A stretch of 64,000 nt of DNA, taken from Heptranchias perlo. Taxonomy: Eukaryota. Shown in pieces: positions 56,761 to 58,264 of the stretch. Where the stretch lies: NCBI RefSeq assembly GCF_035084215.1, contig NW_027139442.1, forward strand, positions 11,098,001 through 11,162,000, in the 5' to 3' direction. Within the stretch, counting starts at the first letter, position 1. Every line of letters begins with the position of its first letter. Made by a program: the position numbers and the translations under genes. The notes beneath the pieces are model-generated. The model saw nothing but the letters and a program-made list of their open reading frames with translations. It was not told the DNA's origin and did no database searches.

Positions 56761-56889
56761 TTAAATAAAGTTCCAGTCTCACTATGTCTCTTCTTATTGG
56801 ACACTGAAGAGTGGAAACAGACCCGAATCGTAAAGATGTTTGTAAACAATTTTACAACACCAAGTTATAGTCCAGCAATTTTATTTTAA

Positions 56890-56930
56890 ATTCACAAGCT
56901 TTCGGAGGCTTCCTCCTTCCTCAGGTAAAT
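56890..56930 (-). ncRNA. Hammerhead ribozyme motif (left arm, minus strand)
   Basis: Reverse complement of 57247-57287. Confidence 0.72.
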
Positions 56931-57246
56931 GTTCAGGAGCTCCTCGAAGCCTACGCATTTATACATATAGAACAATACAAGGTGTTTACAGAATGCCCCT
57001 GGAACTGCCCGTTGCCAAGGCAATCACCGTGTTCAGACAGAGAGGTGTCACCTGCAGAACCCCCGAATACACATTCAACCGTGTATTCAACCGTGCATTC
57101 AACTGTGTATTCGGGGGTTCTGCAGGTGACACCTCTCTGTCTGAACACGGTGATTGCCTTGGCAACGGGCAGTTCCAGGGGCATTCTGTAAACACCATGT
57201 ATTGTTCTATATGTATAAATGCGTAGGCTTCGAGGAGCTCCTGAAC

Positions 57247-57287
57247 ATTTACCTGAGGAAGGAGGAAGCCTCCGAAAGCTTGTGAAT
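57247..57287 (+). ncRNA. Minimal type I hammerhead ribozyme motif
   Basis: Stem I AUUUAC/GUGAAU, core CUGAGGA, stem II GGAGG-AAG-CCUCC, GAA, palindromic stem III AGCU, predicted CUU cleavage triplet. Confidence 0.75.
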
Positions 57288-58264
57288 TTAAAATAAAATT
57301 GCTGGACTATAACTTGGTGTTGTAAAATTGTTTACAATTGTCAACCCCAGTCCATCACCGGCATCTCCACGTAAAGATGTTGGAAGTTATACAAATATCA
57401 TTTATTGCAGGCATCAGGTGAGAAATAGGGAGTATTTTCTTAAGGGTGAGAAACTAGGGACTGTGGAGGAGCAGAGGGGTTTGGGTGTCCAGGTACACCA
57501 ATCAATAAAAATAAGTGCACAAGTGTAAAAAATGAATGAAAGATCCCAATTTCTAGGCTGTCATATCCCAAGGTAGCGCTATCAGGTACTTTCCCAACTC
57601 TGTGGAATTTGCTGATACAATCAGGCCCCACTGCCTCCCTTGCTGGTCCATTCCATACATCCAGCGCACTCTGCATTAAAAAATATAGATTCAAGCATTC
57701 TGCTCATAATGTGCCCCAGGTAGAGAAGACTGAGAGTGGCAGGAGAACCCAAACCATCAGCCTTATGTGAGTTTGGACATTTCTGTTTTTAATTCAGATT
57801 GTTGAATTTGCAATTTATCCACTTTTTTTGTACATTTCTATTTTTATTTTTTAATCAAATTCTCCAAACCCTGTGCGCAGTGAGTGCTGACTCCGGGCCC
57901 TTTGATTGACAGCCCTCACCTCCGCCCGCCTTCGTCCTGGGCTGACTCCTCCTATCACGTGACACGCGGCACCGTCTCTCACCTTTGCGCGCTGACATCG
58001 CGATGCGTGCATGCATCTCCGGCCCGAGGGACGCCGCGCGGTCCCTTTGCCGCTTTCCCTTAGCAACAGGCGCCTGCCAGGAGGATGATGATGGCAGCCT
58101 CCGGTCGGAGTGCGGGCGGCCGCTGCTGTGGGCGGGGTCGAGACCGACAGAGGGAGGGTCCGCACCTGGAAATGGTCTGGGCCCCGGGGACTTGGAATGG
58201 CGCAGTGAGGGCGGTCCGAGCAACAGCTCCTCCGACTTCAGGCCCGAGCGGCGTTAATGGGGTT

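Follow-up and report, generated by a model that had tools for sequence, protein, structure and literature searches.

A palindromic sequence in the histone-gene region of the shark Heptranchias perlo is a real, young and well-preserved insertion, and its anatomy makes it very probable that it belongs to the Penelope-like elements (PLEs), as a truncated copy in which the end repeat (pseudo-LTR) only was inserted twice, head to head. Comparison with two further insertions of the same family suggests that the palindrome was probably made anew at each insertion and not copied as a fold-back element. The whole explanation, formation included, is that of a dead-on-arrival, 5′-truncated copy derived from an endonuclease-bearing PLE of the shark, which we consider likely. 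The head-to-head arrangement is already known for Penelope-type elements, and otherwise the sequence is an ordinary, clean PLE fragment.

The window, i.e., the whole stretch of 64,000 nt of contig NW_027139442.1 that was analyzed, comprises a histone-gene cluster, zinc-finger genes and satellites. The insertion under study, referred to here as copy A, is composed of the following elements, given in window coordinates:

56829..56840, plus strand: left target-site duplication, 12 nt, whose last base doubles as a base of the inverted arm
56840..57073, minus strand: left, inverted arm, a 5′-truncated end repeat without tail, beginning at sense 57337
56890..56930, minus strand: minimal type I hammerhead of the inverted arm, with C3 at 56924 and N17 at 56896
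57074..57103, plus strand: spacer of 30 nt, the 5′ end of the direct piece, within a 12-nt tandem repeat
57104..57337, plus strand: direct arm, a pseudo-LTR-like, non-coding end repeat
57247..57287, plus strand: minimal type I hammerhead of the direct arm, with its predicted cut after 57281
57338..57369, plus strand: tail of 32 nt, 66% A+C, on the direct side only and common to copies B and C
57370..57381, plus strand: right target-site duplication, 12 nt

In its own sense coordinates, copy A thus consists of a direct piece, 57074-57369, and an inverted piece, 57104-57337. The two arms, of 234 nt each, are reverse-complementary save for one mismatch (56980/57197), and the two 12-nt copies of the target duplication are identical, a coincidence obtained with 282 of 200,000 random position pairs from the window. 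The tandem repeat at the centre of copy A (57073-57112, 3.3 copies) has a 12-nt unit, from which we infer a microhomology of 1-2 nt at the junction. The arms, their single mismatch and the duplication had been described in the original prediction and were recovered at these same positions; the 32-nt tail, which had been called unique, holds in length, but it is unique only inside copy A, since B and C carry it too.

The target of copy A has a paralogue within the window:

6650..6661, plus strand: empty paralogous target, present as a single copy and differing at 2 of 12 bases from the duplication of copy A

The flanks of this empty site are 91.2% and 87.5% identical to those of copy A, and three further paralogous sites (about 20650, 39000 and 53280) are also empty, that is, 4/4 of the aligned sites. 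Since the paralogous sites are empty, copy A postdates the segmental duplication and is not a plausible artefact. An insertion younger than the duplication, as had been proposed from the empty site near 6650, is therefore supported by the comparison of the paralogues.

The segmental duplication itself (4767-12865 versus 54958-64000, 81-92% identity) carries C2H2 zinc-finger arrays made of 84-nt units, as well as 22-, 36- and 39-nt minisatellites. The histone cluster extends over 16234-48417 with seven Histone3 stem-loops, and its frames are, from their sequence features, what we take to be H2A, H2B, H3, H4 and H1-like genes; close to its 3′ end, the H2A copy at about 16400-16800 seems to be disrupted. 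Upstream of this H2A copy lies a degenerate tRNA-like sequence (16195-16267, minus strand; ARAGORN Arg(TCT), Rfam 37 bits, many mispairs), which may be a pseudogene or a SINE head. Large satellite arrays of 46-nt and 81-82-nt units are placed between histone genes in both orientations (22000-24200, 31700-37700 and 49000-51300). Furthermore, an open frame of 307 aa at 3802-4725 encodes a seven-transmembrane receptor from the “GPR139-like” group, which is expanded in sharks; its best named matches are all from sharks and rays, with up to 88% identity, which points to a cartilaginous fish as the host.

By self-comparison of the window, two further insertions of the family were found, copy B (39918-40129) and copy C (1840-1994):

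39918-39929 and 40118-40129: duplications of copy B, 12 nt, exact
39929-40023: inverted piece of copy B, with hammerhead, equal to sense 57245-57339
40024-40028: filler of copy B, 5 nt
40029-40117: direct piece of copy B, from sense 57286 through the tail, to +4 beyond 57370
1840-1851 and 1983-1994: duplications of copy C, 12 nt, exact
1852-1897: inverted piece of copy C, with hammerhead, equal to sense 57244-57289
1898-1901: filler of copy C, 4 nt
1902-1982: direct piece of copy C, from sense 57293 through the tail, to +3

In all three copies the order is the same, an inverted piece, a junction and a direct piece that closes with the tail, and all three are bounded by an exact 12-nt duplication, in targets of 67-92% A+T. 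Their right ends fall within 5 nt of one another, the tails of B and C being 3-4 nt longer than that of A. The inverted pieces of A and B are tail-less, with left ends at sense 57337 and 57339, and leave outside them a tail of 32 nt in A and about 35 nt in B; that of C begins further upstream, at 57289, with a microhomology of 5/6 bases. Between the duplications the copies measure 529 nt (A), 188 nt (B) and 131 nt (C), and their inverted and direct pieces overlap by 234 nt in A and by 54 nt in B. Moreover, the inverted pieces of B and C hold about 40 nt, sense 57244/5-57285, that are absent from their direct pieces. Sense 57244/6-57248, the first bases at a candidate RNA start described below, recurs in the filler of B (5 nt) and in that of C (3/4 nt), both of which are mirror images of the inverted piece's end; they may be due to the reverse transcriptase (RT) skipping the ribozyme fold, to hairpin opening or to chance. 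The join of copy B links 57248 and 57286, bases that are paired in helix I.

Outside the hammerhead, the copies differ by one base, in B, in addition to the one arm mismatch of A, and from this near-identity the family is therefore young. The paralogous site of B is empty in 2/2 cases, and for C no paralogous site was found in the window. Neither did nhmmer reveal a diverged fourth copy in the window: its six significant pieces all lie in A, B or C, and two other matches had E>5. A unit of ~3 kb, repeated three times (19199-22175, 36159-39929 and 51760-54745), holds the target of copy B and short paralogues of the target of copy A; A and B thus landed in related DNA.

Concerning the ribozyme, in each motif the core is intact, helix I comprises 6 bp and helix II 5 bp, one A is bulged, and helix III is replaced by a 4-nt palindrome; the expected hammerhead features, i.e., the core, the bulge after A9, the G10.1-C11.1 pair and the palindromic remnant of helix III, are all present. 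A minimal-hammerhead descriptor matched four times in the window (C3 at +57253, -56924, -40015 and -1888), always within the family, and gave 0 matches after the window had been dinucleotide-shuffled 100 times. A minimal type I hammerhead in each arm of copy A had been predicted and is confirmed by descriptor matches on both strands, the cut then proposed at CUU, ~57281, coinciding with that given by the descriptor. Rfam, by means of which the motif was to be verified, did not recover it: no hammerhead family reached the gathering score in the whole window, and none appeared at E<=10 in 56800-57400. Six other Rfam matches at E<=10 in that interval (five miRNA models and one snoRNA model) fall below the gathering score and were set aside as hairpin or chance matches.

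Between the hammerheads of the copies, helix II is altered once on both sides, a pair of helix I passes from A-U to G-U and the loop differs once; three substitutions are common to B and C. All four substitutions seen in the 41 nt preserve the core and the pairs, as ~5.4% of random four-transition sets would. Covariation in the hammerhead was not above the shuffle control (173/500), a comparison that is uninformative with only three distinct rows. Compared with shuffles, the monomer has a fold of only slightly higher quality (z -1.7 to -2.0), and helix I falls to a probability of 0.00-0.20 in longer contexts. N17 is a U, which was counted against a ribozyme, and two units co-folded in silico gave an intermolecular fold that is not the active dimer. 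The two hammerheads of copy A lie on opposite strands and therefore cannot form a dimer in cis; the hammerhead would act in the parent RNA, as a dimer or with the help of protein, and not in copy A.

For a read-through RNA of copy A, the predicted structure is a hairpin of 234 bp (-471.7 kcal/mol, z -54); in transcripts of either strand the predicted pairing probability of helices I and II is then 0.00, so that both ribozymes would be buried. The long double-stranded hairpin anticipated in the original prediction is thus reproduced as an in silico fold, and stands as a predicted structure. In RNAs directed outward from either arm, the motif is predicted to fold in short contexts only, with a helix I probability of 0.62-0.94 for lengths up to 157 nt and of 0.00-0.20 for about 200 nt. 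In Drosophila, siRNA from PLE inverted repeats has already been reported (PMC3681739).

As regards coding content, five frames from the insertion had no match in Pfam and there is no RT or GIY-YIG ORF of its own; copy A is therefore not an autonomous PLE. Across the window, GIY-YIG was detected by Pfam in 0/284 frames and RVT_1 in 3/284, weakly, below the cut-off and away from the copies, the nearest being 1.8 kb from copy A. The frames searched comprised one of 50 aa and 283 stop-to-stop frames of at least 55 aa in which masking, as receptor, zinc finger, histone or tandem repeat, covered less than 30% of the length. Open frames of 126 aa spanning the palindrome were discarded as antisense by-products, proteins of similar length having yielded no homologue at E<=10; in the representatives library the 126-aa antisense frame has three weak, unnamed and unexplained matches (E 1e-5 to 3e-4), two of which carry 6-7 repeated stretches. 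A sigma-70 promoter scan was set aside as irrelevant for a eukaryote. Decayed reverse-transcriptase fragments occur at 8594-8785, 16827-17132 and 59229-59420, and by motif the RVT_1 fragments of the window are presumably CR1-like. Directly to the left of copy A, 55385-56770 had no Pfam match and is, we assume, similar to the 3′ end of an L1/Tx1-type relic.

The link to PLEs put forward in the original prediction holds, given that a hammerhead, a tail, a head-to-head inverted repeat and a target duplication are all present and match the published anatomy. PLE insertions are described as heavily 5′-truncated, with an inverted truncated copy on the 5′ side and a tail of 30-40 nt present at one end only (Craig 2021, PMC8557442; Schostak 2008, PMC2377424; PMC8969392), and those of rotifers as having 8-10-nt duplications, a 31-nt tail and head-to-head palindromes (Arkhipova 2013, PMC3846280). 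Like Penelope/Poseidon and Neptune, the shark copies combine a tail-less end repeat placed head to head, a one-sided tail of 30-40 nt and a target duplication, and they share with endonuclease-bearing PLEs a TATA-like motif in the end repeat and AT-rich targets (PMC8557442; PMC3846280). They depart from the latter in being non-coding and in the length of the duplication, 12 nt in 3/3 copies versus 8-10 nt in the rotifer examples (PMC3846280). Furthermore, PLEs are known from the whale shark (10.1101/443036), PLEs and retrozymes are present in the single chondrichthyan sampled by Li 2026 (bioRxiv 10.64898/2026.07.22.740005), and non-autonomous PLE derivatives exist (PMC8557442; Li 2026, bioRxiv 10.64898/2026.07.22.740005).

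The ribozyme adds to this comparison. Metazoan PLEs carry minimal hammerheads in pairs on opposite strands, 100-700 nt apart (Cervera and de la Pena 2014, PMC4209133), and the shark motifs are like them in their core, the base between 9 and 10.1, the G10.1-C11.1 pair, the palindromic 15.2-16.2 and the opposite-strand pairing of motifs; the 6 bp of helix I and 5 bp of helix II set them apart from the Schistosoma families, which have 4-5 and 7-8 bp, respectively (PMC4209133). In the available supplement text of that paper, no shark example was found. As in the Poseidon element PAc of Anolis carolinensis, a minimal hammerhead is situated upstream of an AC-rich insertion end, at a distance of about 90 nt; unlike PAc, whose ORF starts inside the hammerhead, the three shark sense frames after the motif carry stops or have no start codon before the tail end (Frangieh 2024, PMC11167929). 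With animal non-LTR retrozymes the copies share the absence of coding sequence, a type I hammerhead and kinship with PLE pseudo-LTRs, but retrozymes form head-to-tail tandems, whereas the shark copies are single, head-to-head and flanked by duplications (Li 2026, bioRxiv 10.64898/2026.07.22.740005). A non-LTR retrozyme was accordingly rejected, with only three isolated copies and no head-to-tail tandem in the window. Copy A is called PLE-type by its anatomy, with no RT-based clade assigned, and is not called an autonomous PLE, a retrozyme or a MITE. In the mostly open literature searched, no earlier account of a hammerhead-bearing Penelope insertion from a shark was found among the papers listed, although Repbase, Dfam or the supplements of Li 2026 may list the family, nor any listed paper that mentions both twin priming and pLTRs.

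The origin of PLE inverted repeats is stated to be an open question in the available text of two studies (PMC8557442; PMC3846280). In the shark, the junctions differ in the three copies and the inversion would therefore arise at each insertion. In the mechanism that we propose, the endonuclease of the element would nick both target strands 12 nt apart; the bottom-strand nick would prime a cDNA at a distal internal start site, corresponding to the tail end, 88-93 nt below the hammerhead cut, and the top-strand nick would prime a second, opposite cDNA on the sense RNA. This second cDNA would start at the proximal site in A and B, and beside the stop of the first cDNA in C. Both cDNAs would stop early and would then be joined via microhomology or a few filler bases, while the overlapping stretches, of 234 nt in A and 54 nt in B, would need a second RNA, a tandem RNA or a fold-back. 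For priming from both nicks, the odds appear to us slightly better than even.

Several observations bear on this mechanism. In purified form, the PLE protein of the anole nicks both target strands and extends them, favouring DNA that is AT-rich, and has two internal RT start sites that bracket the tail; these are results obtained in vitro (Frangieh 2024, PMC11167929). In the anole element, about 82-92 nt separate the hammerhead cut (at +26, or +29 by hand count) from the start site below it, at +111-118; insertion in that system did not require hammerhead cleavage, and none of the reads had its end at the cut (PMC11167929). The right ends of the shark copies A, B and C are 88-93 nt below the predicted cut. 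Copy C has the layout of twin priming, inverted to 57289 and direct from 57293. As in L1 twin or dual priming, an inverted and a direct piece lie inside one duplication, with a small internal deletion in C; unlike L1, the shark copies have no poly(A), and the pieces of A and B overlap (Meyer 2010, PMC2837659). Since the inverted pieces of B and C carry sequence missing from their direct pieces, they are not a plain fold-back of the first cDNA. For copy A alone, fold-back of one cDNA explains the structure equally well, and the mirror bases, 3-5 nt, found where the pieces of B and C meet are also compatible with the opening of a hairpin or with a subsequent deletion of the centre.

Indeed, the main rival to priming from both nicks is self-priming with later central deletion: a PLE insertion in which one cDNA, or an antisense template, folded back and primed itself, the endonuclease resolved the product at the tail boundary, and part of the direct arm was subsequently deleted in B and C. 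It is well established that DNA palindromes undergo central deletion, copy A is symmetric about a 30-nt loop with one mismatch in 234, and the fillers of B and C, which favour this rival, resemble remnants of a palindrome centre in mirroring the inverted-piece end. Self-priming has been proposed for PLE palindromes (Arkhipova 2013, PMC3846280) and so has tail resolution by the endonuclease (Craig 2021, PMC8557442). Nevertheless, this reading needs two separate deletions, both from 57249, the left end of C at 57289 is 4 nt from its direct start at 57293, as twin priming and not fold-back predicts, and the anole protein extends both target strands directly (PMC11167929); we regard it as possible but doubtful. 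A non-autonomous fold-back element or retrozyme-like PLE derivative, transcribed and reinserted as a palindromic unit, appears unlikely. A short inverted master is conceivable from the three hammerhead substitutions common to B and C and from their similar junctions, which keep 57246-57248, and non-autonomous PLE derivatives offer a precedent (PMC8557442; Li 2026); yet lengths, left ends and junctions all differ, head-to-tail tandems are absent from the window, the predicted read-through RNA of A sequesters both hammerheads, and fresh priming explains without a master that the left ends of A and B lie at one boundary. The fold-back retroelement of the original prediction, moving as a palindrome, is in this respect not upheld, the copies differing in arm length, left end and junction and the inverted pieces of B and C exceeding the direct ones.

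Two other explanations concern the nature of the palindrome as such. A long near-perfect inverted repeat, without coding frame and with a constant 12-nt duplication, would suit a DNA transposon of the MITE or foldback kind, bounded by long terminal inverted repeats, but the 32-nt tail lies outside the inverted repeat at the right end, the left ends are unequal, C has almost no arm overlap and the hammerhead is kept in every copy; this very improbable reading is already largely refuted by the unequal termini. Chimeric fold-back reads can yield near-perfect palindromes, and an assembly or library artefact would be their outcome here; the exact target duplications around all three copies, the empty paralogues (4/4 for A, 2/2 for B), the one-base difference between the arms and the flanks colinear with the paralogue make such an artefact scarcely credible.

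Returning to priming from both nicks, the ends of the short copies B and C can be set beside candidate signals of the direct piece:

57214..57220, plus strand: the one TATA-type motif that the direct piece contains, with its minus-strand mirror image at 56957-56963, a candidate promoter
57244..57245, plus strand: candidate RNA 5′ end, the sense positions at which C and B have the last base of their inverted pieces
57292..57297, plus strand: AATAAA, a weak candidate poly(A) signal, followed at 57317 by a GT-rich motif

In B and C the ends of the inverted pieces are 1 nt apart, being placed 31 and 30 nt below the TATA motif, and their direct pieces begin 4 and 11 nt below the predicted cut. A TATA-type motif 28-34 nt above such a position occurs in 0.15% of 20,000 shuffles and at 0.27% of window positions, and AATAAA and the GT-rich motif in 14% and 0.7% of shuffles, respectively; these tests were run post hoc, after the pattern had been seen, on two cases that may share descent. 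The promoter of the Drosophila PLE is TATA-less (Schostak 2008, PMC2377424), and a rotifer PLE end repeat has a putative TATA (Arkhipova 2013, PMC3846280).

The positions of these ends suggest that both target nicks may prime cDNA and that the short copies may be run-offs from the RNA 5′ end. Speculatively, the three insertions could be snapshots of an LTR-like step of PLE replication, with run-off and dual priming. The end repeat would then comprise a TATA promoter, an RNA start at 57244/5, the hammerhead as the first 45 nt, a poly(A) signal at 57292 and, 90-130 nt into the RNA, the start sites of the RT. B and C would be “strong-stop” products, whose inverted cDNAs ran off the 5′ end of uncut RNA and whose direct cDNAs ended at or just below the hammerhead cut; in A, both cDNAs would have passed the start, via a jump to the 3′ repeat or on a read-through tandem RNA.

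Altogether, a hammerhead-bearing family of PLE type has recently been active in the shark, with a constant 12-nt duplication. Copy A could be a candidate outward-facing double promoter or, if read through, a source of double-stranded RNA. Evidence for in vivo cleavage by minimal hammerheads is stated to be lacking in the available text of two studies (PMC4209133; PMC11167929); if the LTR-like reading is true, the ends of B and C would be genomic evidence that a minimal ribozyme cuts, or blocks the RT, in the germ line. In so young and dense a family, with three copies in 64 kb, junction counts could separate dual priming from self-priming, and should the end positions of B and C recur genome-wide, DNA alone would map the RNA start, the two RT starts and possibly the ribozyme cut.
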